Below, in pieces: positions 19,573-47,081 of a stretch of DNA of 64,000 nucleotides (positions are counted from its first letter, which is position 1; every line of letters begins with the position of its first letter). The DNA is from Nannocystis bainbridge (GTDB taxonomy: Bacteria; Myxococcota_A; Polyangia; Nannocystales; Nannocystaceae). A program made the translations under genes and the position numbers. Location of the stretch: contig NZ_JAQNDL010000003.1 of NCBI RefSeq assembly GCF_028368995.1, positions 160,001 through 224,000 of the forward strand, written 5' to 3'. Under the pieces are notes generated by a model. It did not search any database. It was not told the origin of the DNA and worked only from the letters and a program-made list of their open reading frames with translations.

Positions 19573-19635
19573 CCGGGCCCCGGCGGCGTCCGTGGCGTGG
19601 CCACGGTGCCACGATTGCTGCGAAGGAGTGAGGAC

Positions 19636-22600: not shown

Positions 22601-25600
22601 TGCACGCCGGCGGCGCCATCTTTGACCTGACCCTGCTCACCCGCGAGACCGAGGACGACGGCCTCGCGGCCGCGCTCGAGTACAGCACCGACCGCTTCGA
22701 TCGCTGGCGCATCGAGCAGCTTGCCCGCGCGATCGAGGTCGTGCTCGCCGAACTCACAGCGCCTCCGGTCCCGATCTCCGAGCTGCCGCTTTTGACGCCA
22801 GTTGAGCAATCACAGCAGTTCGCGCTCGCCTGCGGACCGCCGCAGGACAGCGCGCCGGGCGGGGTGCACGCTCGCTTCGAGGCTCAGGTCGACCACACGC
22901 CCGACGCCGTCGCCCTCGTCGACGGCGACGCGCGCGTGACCTACGCGCAACTGGAGCGCCGCGCCAATCGCCTGTCTCATCATTTGCGCGGGCTCGGGGT
23001 CAGGCGCGGCAGCCTCGTCGGCGTGGTCGCCACGCGCACCGCTGCCACCTTCGTCGCCGTGCTCGCCGTCCTCAAGGCTGGTGGTGCCTACGTCCCGCTC
23101 GATCCGTCCTACCCCGCCCAGCGGCTCGCGCACATCCTCGAGGACGCCGGCCTGCGCTGGATCGTCGCCGAGCCCGACGCCGCAGCCCTCCTCCCGCCGC
23201 ACACGGCCCGACTCGTCGAGCCCGACGCACCCTCGCCCGACGCACACCGGCTCGAGCCTTCGGACCTCGGCCCCGACGACCTCGCCTACGTGCTCTACAC
23301 CTCGGGCTCGACCGGCCGACCGAAGGGCGTGGCGATGCCGCACGGGCCGCTGCACAACCTCGTGGGTTGGCATCTGCGCGACCCTCGGCTCGGGCGTCCG
23401 GCGCGGACCCTGCAATTTGCCTCGCTCAACTTCGACGTCTCGGCGCAGGAGTTTCTCACCACCTGGGCCACCGGCGGCGCGCTGATCCTCGTGGCCGAGG
23501 ACGCCCGTCGAGACGCGCGGGCGCTGCTGGCCCTGCTCGCGCGCCAGGCCGTCGAGCGGTTGTTCCTCCCCTTCGTGTTCTTGCAGCACCTCGCCGAGGG
23601 GCCCCCGGCGCCGTCTCTCGTCGATGTCATCACCGCCGGCGAACAGCTCAAGCTCTCGCCGGCGCTCCGCGAGTGGTTCGGGCGCATGCCGGCGTGCGCG
23701 CTCCACAATCACTACGGCCCGACCGAGGCCCACGTCGTCACCGCGCACGTCCTGCTCGAGTCACGCGAATCGTGGCCGAGCTTGCCGCCGATCGGCGCGC
23801 CGATCTCCAATACCCGGATCTACCTGCTCGACGCCCATCAACGCCCGGTCCCGCCCGGCGTCACCGGCGAGCTCCACATCGCTGGCGCCGCCCTGGCCCG
23901 CGGCTACCTCGGCCAGCCCGCCCACACCGCCGAGCGCTTCGTGCCCGATCCATGGTGTCCCGGCCAGAGGATGTACCGCACCGGCGACCTCGCCCGCCGC
24001 GCGCCGGACGGCGACCTCGAATACGTCGGTCGTCGCGATTCGCAGGTCAAGCTGCGCGGCGTCCGGGTCGAGCTTGGCGAGATCGAGGCCGTCCTGACCG
24101 AGGATCTCGCCGTGACCGCCGCCGCGGCCGTCGTGCGCGAAGATGTCCCCGGGGACAGGCGGCTCGTCGCTTACGTCGCCGCCAGCGGGCCGCTCGACCT
24201 CGACTCGCTGCGCGCGCGCCTGCGGGCCCGCCTGCCCGCGCCGATGCTGCCCGCCGAGCTGGTCCCGCTGCCCCGCTTGCCGCTGCTGCCGAGCGGCAAG
24301 CTCGATCGCCATGCCCTGCCGCCCCCTCCGCAGCGCTCCGCCGCGCCGCCGCGCGACACGCCTGCTTCGACGCTCGAGCAGCAGATCGCCGCGAGCTGGC
24401 GCGAGCTGCTCCAGCTCGACCACGTCGACCTCGACGATCGCTTCTTCGACCTCGGTGGTCACTCGCTGCTGCTCGCCCAGGTCCGCGCTCGCCTCGAGCG
24501 CACCACCGGGCGCACGATCGCCCTCGTCGAGCTGTTCCGCCACCCGACGATCCGCGAGCTCGCGCGTCACCTCGGCGGCGCCAATGACAGCCGTGATTCA
24601 CCAGCCTCGCCGCCGCCACCGCTCACCGCGCCGACCGGCGACGCGCGGGCGATCGCCATCATCGGCATGGCCGGTCGCTTCCCCGGCGCCGCCAGCGTCG
24701 ACGCGCTGTGGGCCGCCCTCGTGGCCGGGCGCGAGCTCATCACCTTCTCCACCCGCGAGCAGCTCGTGGCCGCCGGCGTCGATCCGGCCCTTATCGACGC
24801 CCCGCGGTTCGTGCCCGCCATCGGCGTCATGCCCGACGCCATGTGCTTCGACGCCGCCTTCTTCGGCTACGGCCCGCGCGAGGCCCGGCTCCTCGATCCG
24901 CAGCAGCGCGTCCTGCTCGAGGTCGCCTGGGCCGCGCTCGAACACGCCGGCCACGCCCCCCGCGGCAGCGAGCGCCCGGTCGGCGTGTTCGCCGGCTGCG
25001 AGGTCCCGCGCCACTGGCTCGAGCGAATCGGTGCACCGGGCGGCCCGCTCAGCATCGAGGAGTACGAGGTCGGCTTCGCCAACATGAACGACACCCTCGC
25101 CACCCGGGTCGCCTACGAGCTCGGCCTGCGCGGCCCCGCCTTCACCGTCCAGACCGCCTGCTCGACCTCGCTGGTCGCGGTCCACCTCGCCTGTCAGAGC
25201 CTGCTCACCGGCGAATGCGAGCTGGCGCTCGCCGGCGGCGCCGTCGTCATGCCGCCCGACCGGCTCGGTCACGTCTCCGAGGGCGGCTCGGTGGTCGCGC
25301 CCGACGGCCGCTGCCGGCCGTTCGACGCCGACGCCCAGGGCATCGTCGGCGGCAACGGGGTCGGCGTCGTCGTGCTGAAGCGCCTCGCCGACGCTCTGGC
25401 CGACGGTGACAGCATTCACGCAGTGATTCATGCCACCGCGATCAACAACGACGGCGCGCGCAAGGTCGGCTTCACCGCCCCGAGCGTGCCGGGGCAGATC
25501 GAGGTGATCGAGCGCGCGCTGGCCCTCGCCGCCGTCGACCCGGTTCGGATCGGCCTCGTCGAGGCTCACGGCACCGCCACGCGCCTCGGCGACCCGATCG

Positions 25601-28347
25601 AGGTCGCCGCGCTCACCCAGGCCTGGCGCCGGTCGACCGCCGCGCGGGGTTACTGCGCGCTCGGCTCGATCAAGGGCAACATCGGCCACCTCGGGGCCGC
25701 CGCCGGCATCGCCGGGCTGATCAAGGCCGCGCTGGCGCTGGCGCGCGAGGCCATCCCGCCGACCCTGCACTTCCGCGCCGCCAACCCCGAGCTCGCGCTC
25801 GACACCAGCCCGTTCTTCGTCAACAGCGATACAATAACATGGCCCAAAAGCCATGTTCCACGATTCGCCGCCGTCAGCGCGTTCGGGGTCGGCGGCACCA
25901 ACGCCCACGCAATCCTCGGCGAGGCCCCCGCGATCGCCCCGGGCGAACCGTCGCGGCCGGTGCAGTTGCTGGTGCTGTCGGCGCAATCCCCCGCCTCGCT
26001 GGCCGAGGGCGCCACGCGGCTCGCCGACGCCCTGAGCGGTCCCGACGCGCCCGCGCTGGCCGATGTCGCCCACACCCTCGCCCGCGGCCGCACGCCCATG
26101 CGCCATCGTCGGGCCGTCGTCGCCCGCGACGCCGCCGCGGCCGCCGTCGCCCTGCAGACCGGCGATCGGGCCCGGGTGGTCGACGGCCTCGCCGGCGACC
26201 GACCGCCGCGCATCGCCTTCATGTTCCCCGGCGGCGGCACCCAGACCGTCGGCATGGGCCGCGAGCTCTATACCGCCGACCCGTCGTTCCGCGCCGAGTT
26301 CGACGCCGCCGCCGATCGCTTCGCCGCCGAGCTCGAGCTCGACGTCCGCGCCCTGCTGTTCACCGCCGATCCCGACGAAGCTGCCCGCGGATTGCTGCGC
26401 CCGACGCGATTTTTGCCCGCGATCTTCTGCTGTGAATACGCGCTGGCCCGGCGGCTCATCGCGCTCGGCGTCGTACCGGCCGCGGTCACCGGTCACAGCC
26501 TCGGCGAATACACCGCGGCCGCGATCGCCGGGGTCCTCTCGCTCGCCGACGCGGCGCGCCTGCTGGCCATCCGCGCCCGGCTGCACGAATCGATCGAGCT
26601 GCCCGCCGGCCTGCTCGTCGTCAGCCTGTCCGAGGCCGCCCTGACGCGACGGCTCACGCCCGACCTAGACATCGCCGCCGTCAACGCCGAGGACAGCTGC
26701 GTGGTCGCCGGCCACCTCGCCGCAATTGAATCCTTCGAGGCCGAGCTCGCCCGCGACAGCGTCGAATGCCGGCGCCTGCCGGTCTCGGGCGCCTCGCATT
26801 GCGCGCTGGTCGATCCGCTGCTGGCCCCCCTGGCCGCCTGCGCCCGCGAGCTCGACCTCGCCGCGCCGACCATTCCGCTCGTCTCCAACGTCACTGGCGA
26901 TTGGCTCGGCGACGACGAGGCCCGCGATCCGCAGCACTGGTGCCGTCACCTGCGCGGCGCCGTGCGCTTCGCCGACGGCCTCGGCCGCTTGCTCGCCGAT
27001 CGCGACCTGCTGCTCGTCGAGGTCGGCCCCGGCCGCACCCTCGCCGGGCTCGCGCGCCGCCACCCCGACGCTGGCGGCCGCCCGATCGTCGCCACCATGG
27101 CCGCGCGCGGCGGCGGCCGCACCGACCTCGAGGCGTTCACCCACGCGCTCGCCCAGCTGTGGTGCCGCGGCGTCGACCTGCGCTGGGACGCGCTGTTCGC
27201 CGGCGAACGCCGCCGCCGCGTGCCGCTGCCGACCTACGCGTTCGCGCGGGTCCACCACGAGCACCCCGTCGCCCCGGCCCGGCGCGGCCGAGACGTCGCA
27301 GCATTCCCGATCACCGATGCGCCCGTCGCTCCTGCCATCATTCCCGCCGACGCCCTCGCCGACCCGATCGCGCGGACCCTCGCCGACGTGTTCGCCGAGG
27401 TCCTCGGCGTGCCCGCGCCGGGCCTCGCCGACAATTTCTTCGACCTCGGCGGCTCCTCATTTTTGGCCCTGCGCGTGCGCGTCCGCGTCGAGGAGCTGCT
27501 CGCGGTCAAGCTGCCGGTGCATGCATTCGTCGAGCACCCCACCCTCGCCGGCCTCGCCGACCTCGTGCGCGCCCGCCTGCCCACGGTCGCCGCGCCCGTC
27601 CCCGCGCAAGCGCGGCTCACCGTCGCATTGCGCCCGGGCCCTGGTCGGCGCCTGTTCCTGTTCCAGCCGATCGGCGGCACCGTCTTCACCTACCTGCCGC
27701 TGGCGCGGCGCCTCGAGCCCTCGCTTCACGTCATCGGCGTGCGCGCCTCCGGCATGGAACCCGGGGAGCCCGTCTTCGATCGCCTGGACCCGCTGCTCGA
27801 TCGTCTGCTCGACGAAGTCCGCGCCTGCCAACCGCACGGCCCCTACCTGCTCGGCGGCCACTCGGCGGGCGGTGTGCTCGCCTTCGAGCTGGCGCGGCGG
27901 TTGCTCGCGGCCGGCGAGCGCGTCGAGAATATCGTCATGCTCGACACCGCCTCGCTCGCGCTGGTGCGGCGGCTGGTCATCACCAGCGACGAGGACGTGT
28001 TCGAGATCGCGGGGCGCATGCGCAGCGACTCCTCCCACGCTTACGAACAATTCGCGGCGACCTTGCGCGACGACCCCAGCTTCCGCACCCTCGTGCGCAC
28101 CACCTGGAGCGCCCTCGCCGGCTGCGAACCGGGTCCGCTCGCCGCCGAGGTCCTCTACGTCAAGGCCCGCGTGCAGCCGGACGACGACCGCCACGCCGAC
28201 CACGCGTGGATGGCTCTCGTCGAAGGAGCGTTCGCGCGTATCACCGTCGACGCCGATCATTTCTCGATGATGGACGAGCCCGCCGTGGCCCACGTCGCCG
28301 CCGCCATGAACGCCGCGCTCGCCGCCCCGCCTCGCTCGACGCCATGA
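19636..28347 (+). CDS. Hybrid NRPS-PKS: A-T-C-A-T-KS-AT-ACP-TE
   Basis: Two YTSGSTGRPKG A domains, GGHSL carriers, C motif HHIVTDG, KS TACSTS/HGT/NIGH, AT GHSLG, ACP GGSS, TE GHSAG...DHF. RBS AAGGAG before ATG 19636. Confidence 0.97.
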   Translation: MKSGLPLESVDLAAARRAVIDDWNATAIDLDGERCLHACVAAQVARTPERIAVVAESGSWTYAELDRRADAIAAELQRRGARRGTLVAVCADRSCELLAGLLGVLRAGAAYVPLDPEHPRERLEFMLADCGAPLVLAQRRHAALLSAAAATLVVLDASFPPAGPVAAEVGPDDLIYVMYTSGSTGRPKGVMNIHRGVVNRLLDMQRTLPLGADDRVLQKTPCGFDISVYELFWPLLAGATLVMARPGGHRDPAYLVETIASHAITTIHFVPPMLAAFLEQDDLGPCHSLRRVLCTGDVLAPALVQACHARLDVEVYNLYGPTEAAIEVTAHRCERDSDTASVPIGKPIANCTIYVLDPAGEPVPPGTAGELHIGGVQVSRGYWGRPALTAERFVPDPFTAAPARRLYRTGDLARWRSDGVLEFLGRLDHQVKIRGVRVEPGEIEAVLREHSQVRDALVVVHEQASERRLVAYVVFAGESPHDLAALRASLANRLPAAMVPAALVPLAAIPVLSNGKIDRSALPRPEAQSPERVAPRGPIELAIAELWQSVLGAGECGVKDEFLAIGGHSLHAAQIVARMRRALGRSISLAEFFAHPTIAGQAALLAERARPAEDAIPALSADSGPLSFAEERLYFLHQLAPASPAYHCPHAFHITGECDEARLEAALLALVGRHDVLRTRYLAEAGLPRRAIDRQARLDLARRDLSHLAPEARSEVLAAMLATEVGRPFDLAAGPPLRAGLVRLDRDARVLWLVQHHIVTDGWTDALLLRELGQLYEFGQIDAAPSLNYADYAAWQRHDRSDQHHAALARWQARLAGAPALLTLPIDRPRSDASTGRGARVTFAVSPTTLAPLRHLARAAGATLAHALLSVFVAVLRRFADQDDMVVGLTTAARARVELEEVAGFFVNTLPIRLDLADDPTLPTLLARVRDAVLAAHADETVPFEQIVRTVRAPRDLGGSPLVQVAFAPQPRIDTSLRLRGCAVRPIDLHAGGAIFDLTLLTRETEDDGLAAALEYSTDRFDRWRIEQLARAIEVVLAELTAPPVPISELPLLTPVEQSQQFALACGPPQDSAPGGVHARFEAQVDHTPDAVALVDGDARVTYAQLERRANRLSHHLRGLGVRRGSLVGVVATRTAATFVAVLAVLKAGGAYVPLDPSYPAQRLAHILEDAGLRWIVAEPDAAALLPPHTARLVEPDAPSPDAHRLEPSDLGPDDLAYVLYTSGSTGRPKGVAMPHGPLHNLVGWHLRDPRLGRPARTLQFASLNFDVSAQEFLTTWATGGALILVAEDARRDARALLALLARQAVERLFLPFVFLQHLAEGPPAPSLVDVITAGEQLKLSPALREWFGRMPACALHNHYGPTEAHVVTAHVLLESRESWPSLPPIGAPISNTRIYLLDAHQRPVPPGVTGELHIAGAALARGYLGQPAHTAERFVPDPWCPGQRMYRTGDLARRAPDGDLEYVGRRDSQVKLRGVRVELGEIEAVLTEDLAVTAAAAVVREDVPGDRRLVAYVAASGPLDLDSLRARLRARLPAPMLPAELVPLPRLPLLPSGKLDRHALPPPPQRSAAPPRDTPASTLEQQIAASWRELLQLDHVDLDDRFFDLGGHSLLLAQVRARLERTTGRTIALVELFRHPTIRELARHLGGANDSRDSPASPPPPLTAPTGDARAIAIIGMAGRFPGAASVDALWAALVAGRELITFSTREQLVAAGVDPALIDAPRFVPAIGVMPDAMCFDAAFFGYGPREARLLDPQQRVLLEVAWAALEHAGHAPRGSERPVGVFAGCEVPRHWLERIGAPGGPLSIEEYEVGFANMNDTLATRVAYELGLRGPAFTVQTACSTSLVAVHLACQSLLTGECELALAGGAVVMPPDRLGHVSEGGSVVAPDGRCRPFDADAQGIVGGNGVGVVVLKRLADALADGDSIHAVIHATAINNDGARKVGFTAPSVPGQIEVIERALALAAVDPVRIGLVEAHGTATRLGDPIEVAALTQAWRRSTAARGYCALGSIKGNIGHLGAAAGIAGLIKAALALAREAIPPTLHFRAANPELALDTSPFFVNSDTITWPKSHVPRFAAVSAFGVGGTNAHAILGEAPAIAPGEPSRPVQLLVLSAQSPASLAEGATRLADALSGPDAPALADVAHTLARGRTPMRHRRAVVARDAAAAAVALQTGDRARVVDGLAGDRPPRIAFMFPGGGTQTVGMGRELYTADPSFRAEFDAAADRFAAELELDVRALLFTADPDEAARGLLRPTRFLPAIFCCEYALARRLIALGVVPAAVTGHSLGEYTAAAIAGVLSLADAARLLAIRARLHESIELPAGLLVVSLSEAALTRRLTPDLDIAAVNAEDSCVVAGHLAAIESFEAELARDSVECRRLPVSGASHCALVDPLLAPLAACARELDLAAPTIPLVSNVTGDWLGDDEARDPQHWCRHLRGAVRFADGLGRLLADRDLLLVEVGPGRTLAGLARRHPDAGGRPIVATMAARGGGRTDLEAFTHALAQLWCRGVDLRWDALFAGERRRRVPLPTYAFARVHHEHPVAPARRGRDVAAFPITDAPVAPAIIPADALADPIARTLADVFAEVLGVPAPGLADNFFDLGGSSFLALRVRVRVEELLAVKLPVHAFVEHPTLAGLADLVRARLPTVAAPVPAQARLTVALRPGPGRRLFLFQPIGGTVFTYLPLARRLEPSLHVIGVRASGMEPGEPVFDRLDPLLDRLLDEVRACQPHGPYLLGGHSAGGVLAFELARRLLAAGERVENIVMLDTASLALVRRLVITSDEDVFEIAGRMRSDSSHAYEQFAATLRDDPSFRTLVRTTWSALAGCEPGPLAAEVLYVKARVQPDDDRHADHAWMALVEGAFARITVDADHFSMMDEPAVAHVAAAMNAALAAPPRSTP

Positions 28348-28420: not shown

Positions 28421-29533
28421 TCAGGCCGCGCCCTTGACCGGCGTCGTCGGGGCAGCCGCGGGGATCCCATAATACAGCCGCGCCGCCAGCCCGCCTTCCT
28501 CGGCGACGCGCTCGGCCGCCGCGCCGGCCACAAGCTCGATGCGCGCCCCCGCGGCCATCGCCAGCTCGGGCAGCCGCACCCGCAGGTCGACCTCGGCCAG
28601 CGGCCACGGCACCAGCAACAGCTCGACCTGCTTGTTCTTCAGGCAGTCGAGCACCGTGGCGATGCCGAGCGCCCCGCGGCCGCCGGCCTTGGCCAGGTCG
28701 ACCACCTCGTCCACCAGCGCGCTCTCGTACGCGCGCTCGTGCTCGAGCGCGTGCGGCATCAGGTGGTCCCACGTCGCCTGGTCGGTCAGGTGCAGCGGCG
28801 TCGGCACGATCGCGATCACGGCCTTGCGGACCGTGTCGTGCATGAGGCCCTCGACCGCCCGCGCCGCGCCATCCATCCCTGCGAGCACGATCCGCTTCGC
28901 ACCTGACTCTTCGAGCAGGTTCGCGCATTGCTCGGCGACCTGGCGGTAGAACCGGCGCGCATGATCCTCGATCGTCGCCTCGAAGGCGTCGCGGTTGCTG
29001 CCGCCCTGGGTGTAACCGCCCTCGCCGCGGCCGGTCGCCGGCAGGTATTTCGGCGGGAAGTCGTACTCGCGGACCTCGTTGTAGCGGGTCCCGCCGAGCC
29101 CGGCGCGGCCGAGCCGGGCGACGAAGAAGCGGACCTTCTCCGAGTCGACAAGGGCCACCACGTACGGCTCGTACTCGTCGAGCAGCCACAGCAGCGAGGC
29201 CACCGCCGGCCGCCCGAAGTGGACCTCCGGCGCCACGATCGGCACCTGCAGTCTCAGCACCTCCTCGCCGGTCGGGGTGAAGAACGCCGCCACCGCCTTG
29301 CACTCCGGCCGCAGCGTGGCGAAGAACTGTTCGGCCCGCGCCAGCAGCTCCGGCAGCGCCGGGTCGTCGGAACTCGCCTTCAGGTCGCGCAGCGAGTTCT
29401 TGACCAAAATCCGCCAGCCGGGCGTGCGGCCCTGATTCTCGAGCAGCGACGGGTCGACCTGGGCGTAGATCGAGAGCGTCTTGTCGGCCCCCGGTTGGCT
29501 GAGCACGCGATGGACATCGGTAATTTTGAGCAT
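28421..29533 (-). CDS. Bacterial aeRF1-like (baeRF/VLRF1-related) protein
   Basis: TLSIYAQVDP, HFGRPAVASLLWLLDEYEPYVVALVD, GGSNRDAF loop, RIVLAG, and an L7Ae-like C-domain (GALGIATVLDCLKNKQVELLLV...GGLAARLYY). Confidence 0.8.
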   Translation of the reverse strand: MLKITDVHRVLSQPGADKTLSIYAQVDPSLLENQGRTPGWRILVKNSLRDLKASSDDPALPELLARAEQFFATLRPECKAVAAFFTPTGEEVLRLQVPIVAPEVHFGRPAVASLLWLLDEYEPYVVALVDSEKVRFFVARLGRAGLGGTRYNEVREYDFPPKYLPATGRGEGGYTQGGSNRDAFEATIEDHARRFYRQVAEQCANLLEESGAKRIVLAGMDGAARAVEGLMHDTVRKAVIAIVPTPLHLTDQATWDHLMPHALEHERAYESALVDEVVDLAKAGGRGALGIATVLDCLKNKQVELLLVPWPLAEVDLRVRLPELAMAAGARIELVAGAAAERVAEEGGLAARLYYGIPAAAPTTPVKGAA

Positions 29534-29783
29534 GCAGACCTCGTTGCCGCGAAGTCTGGGCAATTGCCGCGCTCGTGCAAACGCCGGACGAGCTCTGCCG
29601 CCGCGATCGCACCGCCGCTCGCCAATGGTGGCAGGCGCAGCCGCGACGCCGGCGCCGGGGCGACGGGTGCGCTCGGTGCATGCCTCGGGATCGCCGGCGG
29701 CCGCCCGCTCTCACGAGCGCTGATATTCCGGACTACGCATTCGCCGATCGACGCGAGCGACCAGCGAGCCCGACCTTTGGCGA

Positions 29784-38203: not shown

Positions 38204-38554
38204 ATGCGGGTATATGCACCCCTCTCCATCGTGTTCGGTTGGTCCCTGGCCGCTTGTGGCGAAGACCCGGCCGAACCTGATCTGGAAGCCATCAGCCGCG
38301 ACTATTGTACCATCGTTCAAGAGTGCAATCCTGCGGCTGCCTTTCCCAGCCAGGAGGAGTGTGAGGCCCACTCCTCGCAGGAATACGCCCTCGCGCGAAA
38401 AGACGATCCCCCGTGCTTCGAAGCGCTCATGAACTGGGAGGCTTGCGTGGGCGCGCTGGAAAATTGCGAAGAGTATGACCTCTATCTATACGCCATGGGC
38501 ACGCAATGCCTGGAGGAACGCGATGAATTCTATAACTATTGCATGGTCATCTAG
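38204..38554 (+). CDS. Small Cys-rich lipoprotein
   Basis: Lipobox SLAAC and 8 further Cys. GAGG RBS, 3 bp after the previous stop. Visibly lower GC. Confidence 0.8.
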   Translation: MRVYAPLSIVFGWSLAACGEDPAEPDLEAISRDYCTIVQECNPAAAFPSQEECEAHSSQEYALARKDDPPCFEALMNWEACVGALENCEEYDLYLYAMGTQCLEERDEFYNYCMVI

Positions 38555-38969
38555 GATATTGACCGCAGCCTTCGTAATGTTCACCGCCTGCGCCGACCGA
38601 GCCCTCGAGGACGGCGCATCGGAGAGCTCGACCACCCTCGCCGCGGAGACGGCGGACCCCAGCGAGCATCCCGAGGCCGACACGATCGCGCGGCGCTGCG
38701 CGTGGATCGTCGACTGCCAGTTCGGCTGGGACGAGCGCGCCGAGTGCGAGCGCGACCACGCGGCGCGCCTCGCCGGCTATCGCGCGGACGACACCGCGTC
38801 GCTCGACTGCGTCCCCGCGACCCTCGATTTCTGGGCCTGCGGCAACGAGGCCACCGACTGCAGGGAGTTCTGGTTCAGCTGGGGGCTGCTCGAACACAAC
38901 GAGCGGTGCGGCGACGCCAAGGAGCGGGTCTGCGAGGCCCGCTGCGGCGGCTGCGTCAGCGACACCTGA
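38523..38969 (+). CDS. Small Cys-rich lipoprotein, paralog of 38204-38554
   Basis: Lipobox MFTAC with the same Cys spacing. Start uncertain. Confidence 0.75.
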   Translation: MNSITIAWSSRILTAAFVMFTACADRALEDGASESSTTLAAETADPSEHPEADTIARRCAWIVDCQFGWDERAECERDHAARLAGYRADDTASLDCVPATLDFWACGNEATDCREFWFSWGLLEHNERCGDAKERVCEARCGGCVSDT

Positions 38970-38975
38970 CGCCGC

Positions 38976-40484
38976 TCATTGCTGGTACCAGTCGTCGAAC
39001 GGTGCCAGCGCCCACAGCACCGTCTTCCACGTCGTGTACGTATCGACCGCCTGCGGCCCGCAGTCGCGGCCGAAGCCTGACGACTTCACCCCGCCGAACG
39101 GCACCTCGACCGGCGTCGGGTTGTAGTTGTTGATCCACACATAGCCCGACTGCAGCTCCTGCGTGCACCGCAGCGCCCGCTGCACGCTCCCCGTCCATGC
39201 CCCGGCCGCCAGCCCGAACTCGGTCGCGTTGGCCAGCGCGATCGCCTCGTCGTCCGTCGTGAACTTCGTGATGGTCACCACCGGCCCGAAGATCTCCTCC
39301 TGGAACACGCGGTGCTCCGGCTTCACCTCTGCCAGCACCGTCGGCAGGTACCAGTGCCCGCGCGCGAAGTGCTGCTCGGCCGGCGGCGGCCCGCCGCACA
39401 GCCGCTTCGCCCCCTCCGCCAGCCCGACCTCCACGTAGTCCGCGACCTTGCGCGCGTGCGCGGCCGAGATCAGCGCGCCCATCTGGCTGCGCTCGTCGAG
39501 CGGCGGCAGCACGCGGATCGCCCGCGCGCGCTCGACCAGGCGGGCCACGAAGCGCTCGTAGATCCCCGCCTGCACGAGCAGGCGGCTGCCCGCGTTGCAG
39601 TTCTCGCCCTGATTATAAAAGATGCCGAACGCCGCGCCGGCGCTGGCGCGCTCGAGGTCGGCGTCGTCGAACACGATGTTGGGTGATTTGCCGCCGAGCT
39701 CGAGCTGCGTCGGTCGCAGCAGATCGGCGCGCGCGTGCAGCACCTTGCGCCCGGTCACCACCCCGCCGGTGAACGCCAGCACGTCGACGTGGGGGTGGCT
39801 CGCCAGCGGCGCGCCGGCGTCGCTCCCGGTGCCGCAGACGACGTTGAACACCCCCGGCGGCACCCCAGCCGCCAGCGCCAGCTCGGCCGCCGCCAGCATC
39901 GTCAGGCTCGTCAGCTCGCTGGGCTTGAGCACCACGCTGCAGCCGCTGCACAGCGCCGGCGCGAACTTCCACGCGCCGACGTACAGCGGGAAGTTCCATG
40001 GCGTGATCTGCCCGACCACCCCGGCCGGCTCGCGGATCACCGTGGCGAAGCTGTTGCCCGGCACGCGCGTGGTCTGCCCGAACAGCTGCGACGCCAGGCC
40101 GGCGTAGTACTCGAGGATCTCCGCGGTGCCGACGATGTCGGCGCGGGCCTCGGCGATCGGCTTGCCGCTGTCGCGCGTCTCGAGCCACGCCAGCGCCTCG
40201 GCCTCGTCGCGGATCGCCCGCGCGAACGCCCACAGCACGCGCCCGCGGTGGGCCGGGTCGGCGCGCGACCAGGCGCCGGCGACGAAGCTGGCGCGCGCAG
40301 CCCGGACCGCGCGATCGATGTCCTCGGCGCCACCCGCGGGGATCGTGGCGAAGATCTCGCCGGTGGCCGGGTCCTCGACGGGCAACGTCGCGCCGCCCGT
40401 CGACGGCACCACGCGGCCGTCGATCACGTGGCCCTGAGGGTGGAGGAAGCGCGCGGCGCCGGCGGGGATCGTGGCAGTGCTCAT
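38976..40484 (-). CDS. Aldehyde dehydrogenase
   Basis: ITPWNFP, LKPSE, FTGG, LELGGKSP, NQGENCNAGSR, EEIFGPV, PFGGVKSSGFGR. Confidence 0.96.
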   Translation of the reverse strand: MSTATIPAGAARFLHPQGHVIDGRVVPSTGGATLPVEDPATGEIFATIPAGGAEDIDRAVRAARASFVAGAWSRADPAHRGRVLWAFARAIRDEAEALAWLETRDSGKPIAEARADIVGTAEILEYYAGLASQLFGQTTRVPGNSFATVIREPAGVVGQITPWNFPLYVGAWKFAPALCSGCSVVLKPSELTSLTMLAAAELALAAGVPPGVFNVVCGTGSDAGAPLASHPHVDVLAFTGGVVTGRKVLHARADLLRPTQLELGGKSPNIVFDDADLERASAGAAFGIFYNQGENCNAGSRLLVQAGIYERFVARLVERARAIRVLPPLDERSQMGALISAAHARKVADYVEVGLAEGAKRLCGGPPPAEQHFARGHWYLPTVLAEVKPEHRVFQEEIFGPVVTITKFTTDDEAIALANATEFGLAAGAWTGSVQRALRCTQELQSGYVWINNYNPTPVEVPFGGVKSSGFGRDCGPQAVDTYTTWKTVLWALAPFDDWYQQ

Positions 40485-40580
40485 GAGGACGGCGGCGAGT
40501 CTACCCGTGAAGGCGTCACCGCGGATACCGCCGAACGCCCGGCTCGGGCGACCGCCGCGGGCGCTGGTATCCTCGCCGCC

Positions 40581-40958
40581 ATGGTCACCGAGACGCCCGT
40601 GTTCGCCGCCCTCCTGCTCCTGCTCGTCACGCTGCTGGCCGTGAACACCTCGCTCACGCGCATGCGCCTGCAGATCCGCCTCGGCGACGGCGGCGACGAA
40701 CGCATGACTCGCGCCATTCGCGCGCACGCCAACGCGTTCGAGCATGTGCTGCCATTCGTCCTGCTGCTGTTCTTCTACGAGCAATCGGGCGCCTGCGCGA
40801 CCGCCATTCGCTGGTTCGGCGGGCTGTTCCTGGCGGCGCGGCTCGGCCACGCGATCGGCATGCTGCGCGGCCCGTTCAACCTGCTGCGCTTCGGCGCCTC
40901 GCTCACCGCCGTGCTCGAGGTGTGGCTGGCGCTGTCGCTGCTGCGCAACCTCCTGTGA
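40581..40958 (+). CDS. MAPEG family membrane protein
   Basis: LGDGGDERMTRAIRAHANAFEHV...ARLGHAIG and hydrophobic helices. Confidence 0.9.
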   Translation: MVTETPVFAALLLLLVTLLAVNTSLTRMRLQIRLGDGGDERMTRAIRAHANAFEHVLPFVLLLFFYEQSGACATAIRWFGGLFLAARLGHAIGMLRGPFNLLRFGASLTAVLEVWLALSLLRNLL

Positions 40959-40961
40959 CGG

Positions 40962-42362
40962 TCACTGCGGCAGCCGCAAGTCCAGGAACCCGTCGACCAC
41001 CGCGCGCGAGAGCACGTTCGGCAATGCCGGCACGATCGCCGCGGCCGCCGCCGGCACCTCGTCCGGGTGAATCACCGCGACCTGCACCGCGCGCGCGGAC
41101 TCGTCGAGCAGGAACAGGTAATAACGATCGTCCTGCGCCCGCCGCCACGCCGGGCCCTCGGCCGACGCCGGATCGTCGGCGTCGATCACCGCCCCGTGGT
41201 CCATCGCCGTCAGGCTGTTGACGTCGACCAGATCGGCGTCGCCCGGGAACTGCTCGATGCCGCACGACTCGATCCCGCAAGTCACCCCGCCGAGCGAGCC
41301 GACCTGATACGAGCGAATGCCGGTGCTGATGATGTCGCGGTTGCCCCACTGCGGCCCGGACGCCTCCGGAATCACCTCGAACACGTTGATCTGCCCGCAG
41401 CCATCGCCCAATTGGCCATTGTCGGTATTATTAAAACAATGACATGGGTGGTAGCCCGACCAGCCGTCGCGGTTCAGCTCCGACGGCGACACCCCGATCC
41501 ACGGCGCGTCCTGCTCCCGCTCGTCCTCGCCGTCGGCGATGCAGCTGAGCGGCGACAGCCCGGGATCGTCGGCGTACGGCATCGACGCCAGCAGCACGAC
41601 GAGCTTCGAGCCGGCCCAGCCGTGGTAATCGAGGTCCGACCCGGGGCAGTACGGCTCGCTGCCGGGGCCGCACGGGAACGGCTGCGCCTGCATCGCATAA
41701 TAGGCGCAGTTGTTGCCGAGGTCGCCGAGCAGCTCCTTCGCCCCGTTCGGGCCCGACAGCTGGAGGTTGTACGGCTGGTCCGGGGTGCGGCGGTCCCACA
41801 GCGAGCGGATCGCCCACGGGCCGTCGCTCGGCCCGAGCGGCTGATACACCGCCAGCGCCTTGATGCGCAGCGGCCCCTCGAGCACCAGGTGGAGCTGCTC
41901 GTTGAACGGCGTCAGTCGGTCGGAGGTCACCTCGTGCCGCGTGCGGCAGCAGAACTCGGAGCCCCACCCGAAATCGATGGTCTCCGACTGCACGTCGCAG
42001 CGCGCATCGCCGGGCTCGGCCTCGATCCGGCGGCCCCAGTAGCCGGGCGCGCCGATGTTGGTAAACGTCAGCGTCCCGCCGCGCGTGGGCTCGCCGTCGT
42101 TGTCCGGCTCGACCGGCGGATGCGGCGGCGCGTGCGGCTCGTCGAGGTCGTCCCAGCCGCCCGTGTCGGGCTCGCCCGCCGACGTCGACCCGCCCGCCGA
42201 TGTCGGCTCTCCTGCCGACGTCGGCTCGCCCGCCGAAGTCGGCTCGCCCGCCGAAGTCGGCTCTCCCGCCGACGTCGATCCGCCGGCCGAAGATGGCCCC
42301 CCGTTCGCGCCGCACGCGGTGATCACCGCCAGCAGCGACAGCGCGCGCTGCCAGTCCCTCAC
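40962..42362 (-). CDS. Lipoprotein with fungal TOS1/YJL171C-like (DUF2403+DUF2401) glucanase fold
   Basis: Lipobox VITAC, (TSAGEP)n, LTPFNEQLHLVLEGPLRIKALAVYQP, YHGWAGSK...MP, CHC...GCGQINVFEV. GTGA overlap with the upstream gene. Confidence 0.75.
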   Translation of the reverse strand: MRDWQRALSLLAVITACGANGGPSSAGGSTSAGEPTSAGEPTSAGEPTSAGEPTSAGGSTSAGEPDTGGWDDLDEPHAPPHPPVEPDNDGEPTRGGTLTFTNIGAPGYWGRRIEAEPGDARCDVQSETIDFGWGSEFCCRTRHEVTSDRLTPFNEQLHLVLEGPLRIKALAVYQPLGPSDGPWAIRSLWDRRTPDQPYNLQLSGPNGAKELLGDLGNNCAYYAMQAQPFPCGPGSEPYCPGSDLDYHGWAGSKLVVLLASMPYADDPGLSPLSCIADGEDEREQDAPWIGVSPSELNRDGWSGYHPCHCFNNTDNGQLGDGCGQINVFEVIPEASGPQWGNRDIISTGIRSYQVGSLGGVTCGIESCGIEQFPGDADLVDVNSLTAMDHGAVIDADDPASAEGPAWRRAQDDRYYLFLLDESARAVQVAVIHPDEVPAAAAAIVPALPNVLSRAVVDGFLDLRLPQ

Positions 42363-43798
42363 AGGTCCTCGATGATGGCGAACACGTGGTCGCCGCGGTC
42401 CTGGAACACCGGGCCGTTGACGATGAAGCGGCCGTTCGCGTCGTTGAGCGAGTGGACCTCGGGCCCCTCGCCGGTCGGGATCCACTCCTGATTGGGCTGC
42501 TGTTCATACGACAGCGTGCCGAGCAGCTCCGTCTTGTCCTCCTGGCCCAAATAGCGGTACAGCGTGATCTTGTAGAGTTGCTCGCTCGTCGGGATGTCGC
42601 CCATCGCCGTCCTCGCCGCGCGCAGCTCCGGCCATGTGAAGCCCTCCGCGTGGGCGAAGTTGTAGCCCGCGCGATCGCAGCCGCCCGAGTACGGCTTGTG
42701 GAAGTTGCCCGGCGAGTTGAGGCCCGGCGCCCCGTCGTCCTCCCAGATCGCCACCTCCTCCATCGGCCGGCCCTTGTGGCCCCAATACTTGTGCCCCGGC
42801 GCCCCGGCCGACGCGTAGCCCGGCAGGAACGTCTCCGACGGGTAGTAGGATTCGTTGCCCGGGAACTGCGTGCGCGTGGTCGGCACCGGCGCGCTCGCCC
42901 GGTTGATCGTCACGCACGCGTGATAGTCGTCCCAGCCGTCGTCGTGATTGGCGACGGTGGCCCGCTCCGGCTTCGGCACGTAGACCTTGCCCTCGGGATC
43001 GACGTAGAGGCCGAAGTTGAGCTGCCAGTTCGCCCCGTGGCGCGGCCACTCGAACCCGTGCGAGTCGGGCGCCTCCGGGTTCAGGAAGAACATCGTGTAG
43101 CCGTCGCCCTCGGGGTGCACCACCCACGTGGGCCGAAAGCCGGTGAAGTTGATCGGGTCGTCGGGCAGCGGGTCCTGGTTGTACGTCGAATAGCCGTACT
43201 CGTAGCCCGCGTTGACGTGATAGACGAACGGCCGCATCCCGCCGTTTTCGGCGACGAGCTCCGCCGGATCGTCATTTTCGCCGATCGCCCAGCCCTTGTT
43301 CTTGGCCCCCGGCATCCAGGCGACGTCGTCGGTGACGCCCGCGATCCACGGCACCTCGAAGTCGCTGTCGACGATGTAGTGGGTCTCGGTCTCCTCGATC
43401 GGGAATTCCTTGCCGCACTGGACCGCCGACAGCGTGTAGCTCCACGGCATCGCCGTGATGATCGGATACGGCTGGCCCTCGAACGTCGTGTCGGCGAGTG
43501 GGATCACCCGATAGATGTCCGAGAACGGCGTCGTATTGTCGACGCCGTCGACGCTGCAGCCCGCGGGCGGTGGTTGCCCCGTCCCCCCGGAGCCGTCGGT
43601 CCCGTCGGAGCCGTCGGTCCCATCGGTCGGGTCGGTCCCGTCGGAGCCGGGGTTGCCCCCGGTCGCATCGGTCGCCTCGGTCCCGCCGGTCGCCTCGGTC
43701 CCGCCGGCGCCGTCGGTCTCGTCGCTCGGATTCGTCGCCGAGCATGCGACCATCATCAGCGACACCCACAGGATCCTGCCCTCGACCGCGTTCCGCAT
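42359..43798 (-). CDS. Hypothetical lipoprotein (G/T/D linker + aromatic-rich unknown domain)
   Basis: MRNAVEGRILWVSLMMVAC lipobox, GGTEAT/DGTD repeats, coding-like codon pattern. Confidence 0.8.
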   Translation of the reverse strand: MRNAVEGRILWVSLMMVACSATNPSDETDGAGGTEATGGTEATDATGGNPGSDGTDPTDGTDGSDGTDGSGGTGQPPPAGCSVDGVDNTTPFSDIYRVIPLADTTFEGQPYPIITAMPWSYTLSAVQCGKEFPIEETETHYIVDSDFEVPWIAGVTDDVAWMPGAKNKGWAIGENDDPAELVAENGGMRPFVYHVNAGYEYGYSTYNQDPLPDDPINFTGFRPTWVVHPEGDGYTMFFLNPEAPDSHGFEWPRHGANWQLNFGLYVDPEGKVYVPKPERATVANHDDGWDDYHACVTINRASAPVPTTRTQFPGNESYYPSETFLPGYASAGAPGHKYWGHKGRPMEEVAIWEDDGAPGLNSPGNFHKPYSGGCDRAGYNFAHAEGFTWPELRAARTAMGDIPTSEQLYKITLYRYLGQEDKTELLGTLSYEQQPNQEWIPTGEGPEVHSLNDANGRFIVNGPVFQDRGDHVFAIIEDL

Positions 43799-44067
43799 GC
43801 ATGCAGCGTATCGGACCGCGCAGACCGGCGGAAGCACGAAAAGCGAGCGCGGGAGGTGTGATACGCACCCTCGGCAAAGAGGTCTATCGCCACCCATGGC
43901 GGCAAATCGTGGGCTGCGGCCTCCAGACGTCTGCGCGAGCGGTCGGTCCTTACCCCTGCGGCTGCTCGGCCATCGCCCGAGCGCGATACTCGGTGATTCC
44001 ATGCACCGCGGAGCCGCGACCTCGCGCGGGCGCACCATTGGGGGCACCGCGCTCGCCTGCACGATCC

Positions 44068-44988
44068 TCAGCGCCTTCGCTGCGGCTTCGTGGGGAACAG
44101 CGCCGCTACCCGCTCGCGCAACCACTTGTGAGCCACGTCGTCCTGGCGCGACGCCGCGTAGAGCAGCCCGAAGCGGACCTCCGGCAGCTCGAGCGGCGGC
44201 GCGAACGTCACCAGCGGCGCGTGGCGGACGTACTCTGTCACCAGGCTGCGCGGGGCCGTCACCAGCAGATCGGTGCGGGCCGCGATCGCCAGCGCCGTCT
44301 GGAAGCACGGCGTGCGCAGCACCACCCGGCGCGCGCGGCCGAGGCTCGCCAGGTGATTGTCGACCACCCCGCCCGGCAGCGCGCGCGGGGCCACCAGCAC
44401 GTGGCGGGCCGCCAGATAGCGCTCGAGCGTCAGCCGCCCCGGCGCGTGCTCGGCCGCGATCGCCACCACGAACGGGTCGCGCAGCAGCGGCCGCAGCATC
44501 AGCCCGCCGCGCTCCGAGAACGAGGCCCCGAGCGCCAGGTCGGCCTCGCCGCGCTGGACCACGTCCTCGACCGCGTCGCCCACGATCTGCGTCACCACGT
44601 CGATGCCCGGCGCCTCGCACGCCAGCGCCGTCAGCAGCCGCGGCAACACCACCAGCTCCGCGTAGTCGGCCGCGATGATGCGAAAGCTGGCCTTCAGCGT
44701 CGCCGGGGCGAACCCCTCGCCGGCCTGGAACACCCGGCCCACGGCCGCCAGCGCCTCCGCCAGCGGCCCGCGCAGCGCCAGCACCCGCTCGGTCGGCGCC
44801 AGCTTGCGACCGACGCGCACGAACAGCGGATCGCCGAGCGCCGCCCGCAGCCGCCGCAGCGCGTGGCTGATCGCGCTCTGCGTCAGCCCGAGCTCTCGGG
44901 CCGCGCGGACGGTGCTGTGCGTGCGCAGCAGGACGTCGAGCACGCGCAGGTGGCCCAGATCGATCCCCGACGTATGAACCAGATTCAT
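44068..44988 (-). CDS. LysR family regulator (NodD/MexT-like)
   Basis: DLGHLRVLDVLL..STVRAARELGLTQSAISHALRRLRAALGDPLFVR. Confidence 0.95.
   Translation of the reverse strand: MNLVHTSGIDLGHLRVLDVLLRTHSTVRAARELGLTQSAISHALRRLRAALGDPLFVRVGRKLAPTERVLALRGPLAEALAAVGRVFQAGEGFAPATLKASFRIIAADYAELVVLPRLLTALACEAPGIDVVTQIVGDAVEDVVQRGEADLALGASFSERGGLMLRPLLRDPFVVAIAAEHAPGRLTLERYLAARHVLVAPRALPGGVVDNHLASLGRARRVVLRTPCFQTALAIAARTDLLVTAPRSLVTEYVRHAPLVTFAPPLELPEVRFGLLYAASRQDDVAHKWLRERVAALFPTKPQRRR
44974..44988. promoter_or_regulatory. Candidate LysR box ATGAA-CCAGA-TTCAT (T-N11-A)
   Basis: Inverted repeat overlapping the LysR start, about 60 bp upstream of the divergent gene. Confidence 0.6.
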
Positions 44989-45046: not shown

Positions 45047-45673
45047 ATGACGACCACCAAGCTGCTCGCGCCCGCCCTGCTGACCGCCGCCTTCGCCCTC
45101 GCCTGCGCCCATGGCTGCGACGGCGACGACACCGAGAACCCCGAGGCCGCCCCCGACATCGCCGGCACGTGGGTCGGCGACTGCCTGCCGAGCCCCCAGG
45201 CCGACGGCTCGACCCAGTACCTGCGGCTCGAATTCGCCATCACGGGCGACGCCTGGAAGCTCGACTACGTCACCCACGCCGACGACGCCTGCGCCACCAA
45301 GCTGGCGACCGTGCACATCGAGGGCCCCTACGCGCTGCAGCAGCCCTCGAGCGCGGTGGAGGGCGCATGGGAGGCCCGGTTCGGCTTCACCACCAAGACG
45401 ATCCGCCCCGAGGTCGACGGCCTGCGCGACTACCTCAATTCACTCGAAGGCTGCGGCGCCTCCGAGTTCGCCACCGGCGTCGCCCAGGACGTCCTGACGA
45501 CCGGCTGCGCGGGCTTCGGCCAGTACCCGGGCGCCGACTGCCCGGCCGACTTCGACCTCGTGAAGCGCGACGGCGACGACCTGTTCTTCGGCGCCCGCCC
45601 GGCCGACAACGACATGTGCACCGCCGGCAAGCGCCCGACCGCGCTGAGCCCCGTCGCCAACCACCGCCGCTGA
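45047..45673 (+). CDS. APCDD1-domain lipoprotein
   Basis: Lipobox, GTWVGDC...YVTHADDAC...EGPY...SSAVEGAWE...CGA..F..GVAQDV...GC...LFFGARPAD...KRPT, matching my recollection of the APCDD1 domain pattern. Confidence 0.8.
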   Translation: MTTTKLLAPALLTAAFALACAHGCDGDDTENPEAAPDIAGTWVGDCLPSPQADGSTQYLRLEFAITGDAWKLDYVTHADDACATKLATVHIEGPYALQQPSSAVEGAWEARFGFTTKTIRPEVDGLRDYLNSLEGCGASEFATGVAQDVLTTGCAGFGQYPGADCPADFDLVKRDGDDLFFGARPADNDMCTAGKRPTALSPVANHRR

Positions 45674-45917: not shown

Positions 45918-47081
45918 TCAGGGCTCGAGGCAGACGGTGGTGTAGCCGGAGCCGCCGAGGTAACCCCAGCCGGACGGGCAGATCAGGGCCTCGTCGGCGA
46001 CGGACTCGGGCCAGGTCTGGCTGTTGGTGTTGCGGGTGAGGTTGATGATCGCGCCAGGGTTGGCCTCCGCGCAGGCGGTGGCCCAGCCGGAGCCGCCGAG
46101 GTAATCCCAGCCGGCGGCGCACATCTCGGCCTCGTCGTCGACGGTCTCGGGCCATGTCTGGCCGTCTTCGCTGCGGGTGAGGTAGGCGAGGGCGAGGCCA
46201 TCGCTGCCGGCGCACACCGTGCTGTCGCCGGAGCCGCCGAGGTATTCCCAGCCGGGCGGGCACATGTCGGCCTCGTCGGTGACGGTCGCGGGCCAGCTCT
46301 GGCCGTCGACGTTGCGGGTGAGGCTGACGATCGAGCGCGCCTCGGCGGTGCTGCAGGCGGTGGCCCAGCCGGAGCCGCCGAGGTAATCCCAGCCGGGCGG
46401 GCACATGTCGGCCTCGTCGGCGACGGTCTCGGGCCAGGTCTGGCCGTCGACGTTGCGGGTGATATAGATGGTCGTGAGCCGCTGGTCGCTCATGCACATG
46501 GTGGCGAAGCTGTTCCCGCCGAGGTAGGTCCAGCCGGCCTCGCACATGTCGGCCTCGTCGGTGAGGATCTCGGGCCAGGTCTGGCCGTCGACGTTGCGGG
46601 TGAGGTTGATGATCGTGCCGGGGGCGTCGAGCAGGCACACAGTGGCGAAGCTCGAGCCGCCGAGGTAGGTCCAGCCGGCCTCGCACATGTCGGCCTCGTC
46701 GGTGAGGACTTCGGGCCAGGTCTTGCCGTCGACGTTGCGGGTGAGATAGGCGACCAGCGACGCGGCCGCGGGCGGCTCGCCGGTCTCGCCGGTCGGATCA
46801 CCGGTGCCGGGCTCGGTCGCGGTGCCGGGCTCGGTCGCGGTGCCGGGCTCGGTCGCGGTGCCGGGCTCGGTCGCGGCGCTGGTCGTCGGTCCACCGTCGC
46901 TGTCCGTACCCGTCGAACCTTGCGTGGGGTCGTCGTCGGTGGTGCCGCCGGGCGTGGTCGAGGGGCCGGGCGTGCCGGTGGCGGTGGGGTTGGTGGTGGT
47001 GGCCCCAGTGAGGTCGGGGCCGTCGTCGCCGCAGGCGGAGCCGAAGATGAGCACGAGGGCGAAGGTGTGTCGGGGGGCCAT
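45918..47081 (-). CDS. Lipoprotein with six 47-aa tandem repeats
   Basis: Lipobox FGSAC, (TATEPG)x4, and repeats LTRNVDGQTWPE..DEADMC..GW.YLGGS...T.C at a 141-bp period. Confidence 0.88.
   Translation of the reverse strand: MAPRHTFALVLIFGSACGDDGPDLTGATTTNPTATGTPGPSTTPGGTTDDDPTQGSTGTDSDGGPTTSAATEPGTATEPGTATEPGTATEPGTGDPTGETGEPPAAASLVAYLTRNVDGKTWPEVLTDEADMCEAGWTYLGGSSFATVCLLDAPGTIINLTRNVDGQTWPEILTDEADMCEAGWTYLGGNSFATMCMSDQRLTTIYITRNVDGQTWPETVADEADMCPPGWDYLGGSGWATACSTAEARSIVSLTRNVDGQSWPATVTDEADMCPPGWEYLGGSGDSTVCAGSDGLALAYLTRSEDGQTWPETVDDEAEMCAAGWDYLGGSGWATACAEANPGAIINLTRNTNSQTWPESVADEALICPSGWGYLGGSGYTTVCLEP

Follow-up and report, generated by a model that had tools for sequence, protein, structure and literature searches.

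A Tos1-like lipoprotein with a replaced putative catalytic motif and a SUN-like partner in Nannocystis bainbridge

The closest described relatives of the protein considered here are the Tos1/YJL171C proteins of fungi and oomycetes. The protein is encoded on the minus strand of a 64,000-nucleotide stretch of Nannocystis bainbridge DNA (assembly GCF_028368995.1, contig NZ_JAQNDL010000003.1, positions 160,001 to 224,000), which was analysed as a whole and is called the window below. Steczkiewicz (2010) reportedly predicted the Tos1 family to be a circularly permuted β-sandwich resembling glycoside hydrolase family 16 (GH16). The glucanase label of the fungal Tos1 proteins rests on a bioinformatic prediction of that year (PMC4176579, PMC4664879), and Tos1 and SUN belong to the secreted wall proteins that yeasts make in greatest abundance (PMC4664879). 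The SUN domain combines a sushi-like with a thaumatin-like fold and has a canyon for β-1,3-glucan. It binds this polymer, hydrolysis by members of the family is slight or absent, and ScSun4 and ScSim1 did not hydrolyse laminarin; a 2026 account calls the family fungal-specific (PMC13251364). Glucanases serve myxobacteria in their attack on fungal and oomycete prey (PMC10800785).

Sequence comparison places the Nannocystis protein securely as a full-length homologue of Tos1/YJL171C on a far branch of the family, and in its version of the ExDxxE motif Gln stands for the first Glu and Asn for the Asp. Its gene comes second in a two-gene unit and is translationally coupled to the upstream gene, which encodes a SUN-like lipoprotein. 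We propose, as a tentative reading with a probability of roughly 0.45, that the Tos1-like protein is a non-hydrolytic, envelope-tethered β-1,3-glucan-binding lipoprotein working with this partner. Papers on the Tos1 family in the literature searched, supplements and subscription journals lying outside its scope, deal only with fungi, oomycetes and plants, and no bacterial member is described there. The clade with Gln, its coupling to SUN-like genes and the coupling of the Glu-bearing type to GH128 genes likewise appear to be undescribed in that literature.

Tos1 family membership and the replaced motif

A preliminary description of the gene, made from the letters alone, had proposed a homology to TOS1/YJL171C through the domains DUF2403 and DUF2401. 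The homology was borne out by Pfam, by profile comparison and by the ESM Atlas, although only one of the two domains passes its threshold in this protein. PF10290 (Tos1_N, formerly DUF2403) is matched with 33.1 bits, above the gathering cut-off of 27, and PF10287 (Tos1_C, formerly DUF2401) with 17.1 bits, below its cut-off of 27. The PF10287 cut-off is passed by a few members of the bacterial family, such as P0123 with 33.7 bits, and no NCBIfam model matches the Tos1-like protein. A word-indexed search returned 266 relatives, the named ones (61-88% identity) coming from Nannocystis (to 88%), Polyangium, Pendulispora, Labilithrix, Cystobacter and Sorangium. They are called "DUF2403 domain-containing lipoprotein" or bear similar Tos1/Glycine-rich-domain names, and database naming (NCBI) thus already flags the bacterial family by domain.

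The bacterial family was represented by a 31-member profile (A1). With this profile, a search of 1.84 billion representatives gave 180 proteins of E ≤ 0.001, and canonical Tos1 proteins were retrieved with E-values of 1e-13 to 1e-5. Among 37 distant full-length matches selected from this search, PF10290 is present in 36 and PF10287 also in 35, with strong scores. Aligned by hhalign to a profile of 30 canonical Tos1 proteins (A3), the bacterial profile gave a probability of 99.9% and E 4.2e-33 over 265 columns, which cover query residues 98-451 and both domains at about 19% identity. Tos1_C clusters also ranked first (0.90) in a feature search of the ESM Atlas. A phmmer search of the PDB sequences with the protein itself returned nothing relevant. 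One PDB match, to a GH114 entry, was dismissed because its alignment lies only on the low-complexity linker.

The motif is encoded by GGG CAG ATC AAC GTG TTC GAG, the codons of Q324 and N326 being each one base from GAG and GAC, and hhalign superposes GDGCGQINVFE on the template consensus GGCGELDIAE. The canonical proteins have ExDxxE, written as GCGE[LFY]D..E, in 35 of the 37 selected distant matches and in 119 of the 120 matches of a second search. The exact string GCGEFDIFE, which the preliminary description had quoted, is found in the canonical proteins P0251 and P0257. Its claim that the first Glu and the Asp are replaced agrees with the codons CAG and AAC and with the alignments to canonical proteins.

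In GH16 enzymes the first Glu of this motif is the nucleophile, the Asp its helper and the last Glu the acid/base. When all PDB sequences were searched with the canonical Tos1 profile, the six matches were all GH16 proteins, five of them named endo-β-1,3-glucanases, at marginal E-values (best 0.0043, others 0.15-0.2). In the alignment, PAiW...GCGElDiaE of Tos1 falls on PAIW...CGEIDILE of GH16, the catalytic strand, and the link from the motif to GH16 that had been drawn earlier stands with this degree of support. Because the canonical Tos1 motif aligns to that strand, Q324 would by transitivity take the position of the nucleophile Glu, N326 that of the helper Asp and E329 that of a putative acid/base Glu.

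In the query and 120 listed homologues, GCGQ.N..E occurs in 74 and GCGE.N..E in 46, one sequence (P0081) being truncated. Asn replaces Asp in all 120 motif-bearing members listed. Both substitutions in the preliminary description are therefore real, but the change of Asp to Asn is a trait of the whole bacterial family and only that of Glu to Gln is clade-specific. A sequencing error or pseudogene was rejected, since 74 proteins share GCGQ.N..E and the ratio of nonsynonymous to synonymous substitution rates (dN/dS, Nei-Gojobori) between the window gene and five relatives is 0.15-0.20.

Genomic loci were taken from the best 80 of 111 matches and kept as 76 loci, with flanks fetched up to 6 kb. 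A quick maximum likelihood tree, supported by the Shimodaira-Hasegawa-like approximate likelihood ratio test (SH-aLRT), was made from 81 family members (the 76 loci and the window), rooted with 10 canonical proteins as outgroup. The bacterial family forms one clade (support 100) on a long branch, of length 2.56. Within it, 25 of the 26 Gln-bearing (Q-type) sequences form one clade (support 99), whose sister group is three Glu-bearing proteins (two from Sorangium and one from a metagenome-assembled genome), and the lone remaining Q sequence, L076, sits on a very long branch with an unsure placement. Because the sister trio and the canonical outgroup both have Glu at position 324, Glu represents the ancestral state, and a single fixation accounts for Gln in the main Q clade. 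The window protein groups with those of Nannocystis sp. RBIL2 (90% identity over 383 columns), N. pusilla, N. exedens and N. punicea, and the Q clade is under purifying selection.

The substitutions K303G, Y310F, V361T, C382N and C403G were fixed along with E324Q relative to both Glu groups. Across the family, 68 columns are at least 97% invariant, including W288, E295, R298, D299, N326, E329 and R342. The Tos1-like protein also contains 12 conserved Cys. The census, the tree, the dN/dS values and the conserved columns together describe a pseudo-glucanase pattern, with the nucleophile position lost and the remaining fold kept under selection. Q-type and Glu-type (E-type) genes are paralogues, because both are held by the same assemblies, of which there are at least eight.

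The tree also bears on the suggestion, made in the preliminary description, that the gene had crossed kingdoms. It resolves the bacterial family as a distinct clade and gives no support for a recent transfer of this gene, which was set aside because the clade is deep, diversified and almost purely myxobacterial. A second myxobacterial clade consists of Tos1-like lipoproteins with the canonical ExDxxE, from Melittangium boletus, Cystobacter fuscus and metagenome-assembled genomes (P0185, P0335, P0336, P0338, P0379 and P0438). P0185 shares 40-48% identity with Tos1 proteins of basidiomycetes and oomycetes, and this clade is a better candidate for inter-kingdom transfer than the Q-type gene. Three Rhizobacter genomes (Burkholderiales) have a Q-type gene that falls within the myxobacterial Q clade (GCGQINILE, match at 6001-7191 in each) with no SUN-like or GH128 neighbour; these copies look like a transfer from Myxococcota.

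The SUN-like partner and the gene neighbourhoods

The open reading frame of the Tos1-like protein runs from a GTG start at 42362 to a stop at 40962-40964, and its start overlaps the stop of the SUN-like gene (Table 1). The N-terminus, MRDWQRALSLLAVITAC, matches the form of a lipoprotein signal, with the lipobox Cys at residue 17, and most homologues have an aligned Cys in this column. The signal is followed by GGSTSAGEP(TSAGEP)n. The lipobox in the translation and the repeat found by Tandem Repeats Finder thus support the earlier description of a lipoprotein on a (TSAGEP)n stalk. In the AlphaFold model, residues 1-61 are disordered, with a predicted local distance difference test score (pLDDT) below 50, and the rest is confident and mostly β (mean pLDDT 82.6, predicted template modelling score 0.82). 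The model of the SUN-like protein has a pLDDT of 75.7 overall and below 50 for residues 13-73.

No Pfam domain reaches 0.01 in the SUN-like protein. A Foldseek search of the PDB with its model gave four matches at E ≤ 0.001, all to SUN domains of yeast SIM1/SUN4 (9t4q, 9t4n, 9t4o and 9t47; E 3.2e-6 to 6.6e-5, probability 1.00), with template modelling (TM) scores of 0.46-0.47 on the target. The fifth match is TLXI, a thaumatin-like inhibitor of xylanases (3g7m, E 0.021). Weak matches to the Pfam SUN family (PF03856) are found in 12 of 27 members of the partner family (best E 0.0083, window protein 0.058), all on the same protein region and at positions of about 57-136 of the hidden Markov model. 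All 58 detected members of the partner family are annotated as "hypothetical", and one homologue, P0306, carries ricin-B lectin domains. The structural model suggests that the partner is a remote bacterial relative, or a look-alike, of the fungal SUN domain.

The pair recurs in the genomes scanned. Flanks of 18 of the 25 primary Q-type loci contain a SUN-like gene, in 16 of them just upstream and on the same strand, and the seven loci without it comprise three from Rhizobacter, two from Cystobacter fuscus and two on short contigs. Glu-type genes have a different preferred neighbour, a PF11790 gene, which is present in the flanks of 19 of the 51 primary Glu-type loci, mostly directly downstream, and directly follows all four secondary Glu-type copies. 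SUN-like genes accompany 6 of the 51 primary Glu-type loci. A published table equates PF11790 with the GH128 endo-β-1,3-glucanases and PF03856 with GH132 (PMC11609419).

Both types stand side by side in some genomes. Polyangium loci L005-L007 contain a row of Tos1-like(E), GH128, SUN-like and Tos1-like(Q) genes, then a gene for an extracytoplasmic function (ECF) sigma factor. In these rows (L006:2318-7212, likewise L005 and L007) there is an overlap between the first two genes, and another GH128 gene follows at a distance of 3 kb. Minicystis (L010) has a SUN-like/Q pair together with a convergent E/GH128 pair. In the bacterial protein P0111 (740 aa), a thaumatin domain (PF00314) is fused to a Glu-type Tos1-like domain.

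In the window, the two-gene unit is flanked by the last two genes of Table 1, and a promoter and terminator scan of 40400-44300 gave nothing that exceeds chance. A gene for an APCDD1-like lipoprotein (45047-45673, plus strand; PF14921, 26 bits against a cut-off of 27) diverges from the LysR-type gene, and this LysR/APCDD-like pair is kept beside the unit in the Nannocystis loci L001, L003 and L012.

Table 1. Features of the Tos1-like/SUN-like unit and its borders, in window coordinates.
Feature	Positions	Strand	Basis or detail
Tos1-like lipoprotein gene, Q-type	40962..42362	minus	Open reading frame and translation, 466 aa plus stop
Signal peptide with lipobox AVITAC, Cys17, residues 1-17	42312..42362	minus	Translation, sequence-level prediction
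18-nt tandem repeat x6.1 coding the (TSAGEP)n linker	42169..42277	minus	Tandem Repeats Finder
Tos1 N-terminal domain match, residues 138-175	41838..41951	minus	Pfam PF10290, E 7.7e-8
Tos1 C-terminal domain, sub-threshold match, residues 238-333, contains the motif	41364..41651	minus	Pfam PF10287, E 0.0044
QINVFE (Q324, N326, E329), replacing ExDxxE	41376..41393	minus	DNA, alignments, census
SUN-like lipoprotein gene, upstream partner	42359..43798	minus	Open reading frame, 479 aa
GTGA overlap, SUN-like stop with Tos1-like GTG start	42359..42362	minus	Sequence ...GACCTGTGAGGGAC...
9-nt repeat x14.7, Gly/Thr/Asp-rich linker of the SUN-like lipoprotein	43593..43724	minus	Tandem Repeats Finder
LysR-type regulator, upstream	44068..44988	minus	Pfam HTH_1 and LysR_substrate
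MAPEG-family gene, convergent, bounds the two-gene unit	40581..40958	plus	Pfam PF01124, E 9e-16; G+C at third codon positions 0.94

A proposed glucan-binding role and its alternatives

In the role proposed above, the unit would produce a pair of lipoproteins that are anchored in the membrane and carried on flexible repeat linkers. The first of these, the SUN-like partner, would have a fold type that binds β-1,3-glucan. In the second, replacement of the nucleophile Glu by Gln and of the helper Asp by Asn would have abolished hydrolysis by the retaining GH16 mechanism, with the putative acid/base Glu retained. The protein would then act at the cell envelope as a lectin-like β-1,3-glucan module, probably jointly with its partner, and cutting would be left to Glu-retaining paralogues and GH128 enzymes in related genomes and to other glucanases here. 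A binding module is suggested because the nucleophile and nearby polar groups are lost and the rest is tightly conserved. Genomic context favours β-1,3-glucan as the ligand because of three independent links, namely the SUN-like partner, the GH128 genes beside the paralogues and the thaumatin and ricin fusions. The most likely source of this ligand would be the wall of fungal or oomycete prey.

Several observations weigh against this proposal. The "catalytic" meaning of the Tos1 motif is itself a prediction, and no glucanase activity of any Tos1-domain protein is reported in the literature examined. The oomycete protein OPEL and the Pythium protein I06 have intact motifs and are reported not to hydrolyse laminarin; mutation of the motif in OPEL is reported to abolish its elicitor effect (PMC7219551, PMC4915311). 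The preliminary description had taken the fungal proteins to be glucanases, which goes back to the 2010 prediction and does not fit the behaviour of OPEL and I06 on laminarin. No match at E ≤ 1e-3 was found when the Tos1-like model was compared with the PDB by Foldseek. The GH16 enzyme BuGH16B (5t9x) appeared at rank 41 with E 0.19, and an aligner that follows the order of the chain would fail on a circular permutation. Nothing relevant was found among the PDB sequences with the bacterial family profile, either.

Further points on the same side concern the partner and the neighbourhoods. The SUN match is remote, with a TM score of 0.30-0.31 on the query, the root-mean-square deviation being about 9 Å, and the PF03856 score of the partner is 13.3 bits, below the gathering cut-off of 25. 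A profile of the partner family (A2) found nothing among the PDB sequences, and an ESM Atlas search with the partner gave no usable match. The pair of Q-type and SUN-like genes is not obligate, because the Q-type gene occurs alone in Rhizobacter (L017, L018, L020) and Cystobacter fuscus (L019, L023). The 64-kb window contains no GH128 gene, no Glu-type gene and no second Tos1-like copy. Finally, the strict conservation of Q324, N326 and E329 would be compatible with an altered catalytic mechanism as well. The top Foldseek matches of the Tos1-like model (coronavirus spike chains and TolB) were set apart as unusable, with TM scores of about 0.1.

A more specific form of the proposal, in which a Tos1 paralogue without catalytic activity joins a SUN-like protein in a tethered β-1,3-glucan receptor that recognises or holds fungal and oomycete prey, seems to us rather unlikely as a whole. 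If it were true, the set of proteins with which fungi remodel their walls would have its counterpart in myxobacteria (SUN-like, Tos1-like and GH128), the receptor would correspond in a bacterium to the insect β-1,3-glucan recognition protein (β-GRP), and the partner would contain the first SUN-type domain outside fungi.

In the first of the alternatives, the Tos1-like protein would still be an enzyme, its active site re-tooled around Gln324, Asn326 and Glu329. Such a site might support a transglycosylase or lyase-like reaction, use another residue as nucleophile or depend on substrate-assisted catalysis, where the acetamido group of an N-acetylhexosamine polymer such as chitin replaces the enzyme nucleophile. 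In enzymes of the last kind a single acid/base Glu is often accompanied by an amide or acid residue, and a putative acid/base Glu is kept here. The Q clade shows no variation at Q324, N326 and E329, the last two being fixed family-wide, and the low dN/dS and the 68 near-invariant columns would suit an enzyme as well. Asn is moreover present throughout the family, yet Glu-type members are maintained beside GH128 genes. We nevertheless consider a re-tooled enzyme unlikely. With the change to Gln, a conserved Lys, the hydroxyl of a Tyr and two paired Cys were lost, a pattern that resembles the decay of a site rather than its redesign, and no chitin-related gene adjoins the Tos1-like gene. In mutagenesis of the Bacillus 1,3-1,4-β-glucanase, replacement of the nucleophile Glu by Gln is said to have nearly abolished activity. 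Natural binders that derive from GH16 and have no catalytic residues exist, such as insect β-GRP (PMC13251364) and Rv0315 of Mycobacterium tuberculosis.

An equally improbable alternative gives the pair a ligand made by the cell itself, an extracellular polysaccharide of the envelope, slime, or spore or cyst wall, in a bacterial version of fungal wall housekeeping. The fungal SUN and Tos1 proteins act on their own wall according to the available accounts (PMC4664879, PMC13251364). Both bacterial proteins are predicted to be lipid-anchored rather than freely secreted, and the ECF sigma factor gene after the Polyangium cluster would suit envelope signalling. The unit is also kept across Polyangia of differing lifestyles, including Sorangium and Byssovorax, which are cellulose degraders. 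Against an own polysaccharide, we know of no β-1,3-glucan in myxobacterial walls, and most Myxococcia, a class that also sporulates, lack the family as judged from the 76 loci kept. The three Rhizobacter strains gained the gene without the partner, which is a better fit to a stand-alone environmental ligand.

It is very unlikely that the ligand is not a glucan and that the Tos1 fold scaffolds protein binding, inhibition of foreign glycosidases or adhesion with an incidental motif difference. In favour of such a function, no Tos1-family protein is reported as an active glucanase in the literature examined, the partner has the xylanase inhibitor 3g7m as its fifth structural match, and the Tos1-like model has no confident Foldseek fold. 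Against it, the three context links point to β-1,3-glucan, and the sole relatives that canonical Tos1 has among PDB sequences are six GH16 proteins, of which five are named endo-β-1,3-glucanases.

The coupled SUN-like/Tos1-like pair of these predatory soil bacteria offers a tractable bacterial system for the function of the Tos1 fold, and the natural Glu and Gln versions an "active-site on/off" comparison. The pair is also a candidate glucan-recognition module for the study of myxobacterial attack on fungi and oomycetes.

The rest of the window and comparison with known systems

The window has a G+C content of about 71% throughout. Near the unit, a gene at 45918-47081 (minus strand) encodes a secreted-looking protein of 387 aa with about six repeats of about 44 aa (LTRNVDGQTWPE...DEADMC..GW.YLGGS) and no Pfam family. 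Two small Cys-rich putative lipoproteins, also without a Pfam family, are encoded on the plus strand at 38204-38554 and 38475-38969, the listed open reading frames overlapping by about 80 nt. A large gene encodes a hybrid non-ribosomal peptide synthetase-polyketide synthase (19597-28344, plus strand) with two adenylation matches and condensation, carrier, ketosynthase, acyltransferase and thioesterase domains. A bacterial α-2-macroglobulin of 2025 aa with MG, bait-region and MG10 domains is encoded at 720-6794 (minus strand). Other genes encode a baeRF (release-factor-like) family protein (28424-29563, minus strand), a LanC-like protein (60108-61319, plus strand) and a DUF4874+DUF4832 protein (11715-13469, plus strand).

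Compared with the fungal and oomycete Tos1 proteins including OPEL, the Nannocystis protein shares the two-domain layout and its order, the Cys pattern, the GCG-x-x-x-x-x-E strand and a predicted extracellular location. It differs from the canonical proteins in having QxNxxE in place of ExDxxE, a lipoprotein anchor in place of the eukaryotic secretion or glycosylphosphatidylinositol signal, about 50 extra unaligned residues after the motif, and a PF10287 score below the cut-off. An association with a thaumatin-like module is common to OPEL and the Nannocystis locus, being a fusion in OPEL (PMC7219551) and operon-coupled here. The bacterial fusion protein P0111 has the same arrangement as OPEL, which is composed of thaumatin-like, Gly-rich and Tos1-like parts (PMC7219551).

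With the GH16 laminarinases (4bq1, 2vy0, 3dgt), the window protein has in common P287, W288 and the final Glu. It is unlike them in its predicted circular permutation and in the replacement of the nucleophile Glu and the helper Asp. By analogy, it may resemble insect β-GRP/GNBP proteins and Rv0315 of M. tuberculosis as a glucanase-type fold without catalytic residues. β-GRP is the β-1,3-glucan recognition protein of insects (PMC13251364), and Rv0315 has been called an "inactive β-1,3-glucanase" (PMC4606783). Unlike the window protein, these are ordinary non-permuted GH16 folds from animals or an actinobacterium, and the window protein differs from them in keeping the acid/base Glu, in its predicted lipid anchor and in its pairing with a SUN-like protein.

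The partner resembles the fungal SUN proteins (GH132, PF03856; ScSun4, ScSim1, AfSun1) in its four top structural matches and in the weak Pfam matches of its family. It is unlike them in length (about 400 against about 285 residues), in the remoteness of the similarity and in its bacterial source, SUN being reported as fungal-specific (PMC13251364).

The nearest comparison is with the Glu-type paralogues, such as those of Sorangium cellulosum So ce56 (L028) and the first gene of the Polyangium row (L006), which are 40-61% identical to the window protein and are likewise predicted lipoproteins with the Asn and the final Glu. Some of them (L039, L040, L042 and L046) also have a SUN-like neighbour, as the Q-type genes do. 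They differ from the Q type in keeping Glu, K303, Y310 and the C382/C403 pair, and in their GH128 neighbours.

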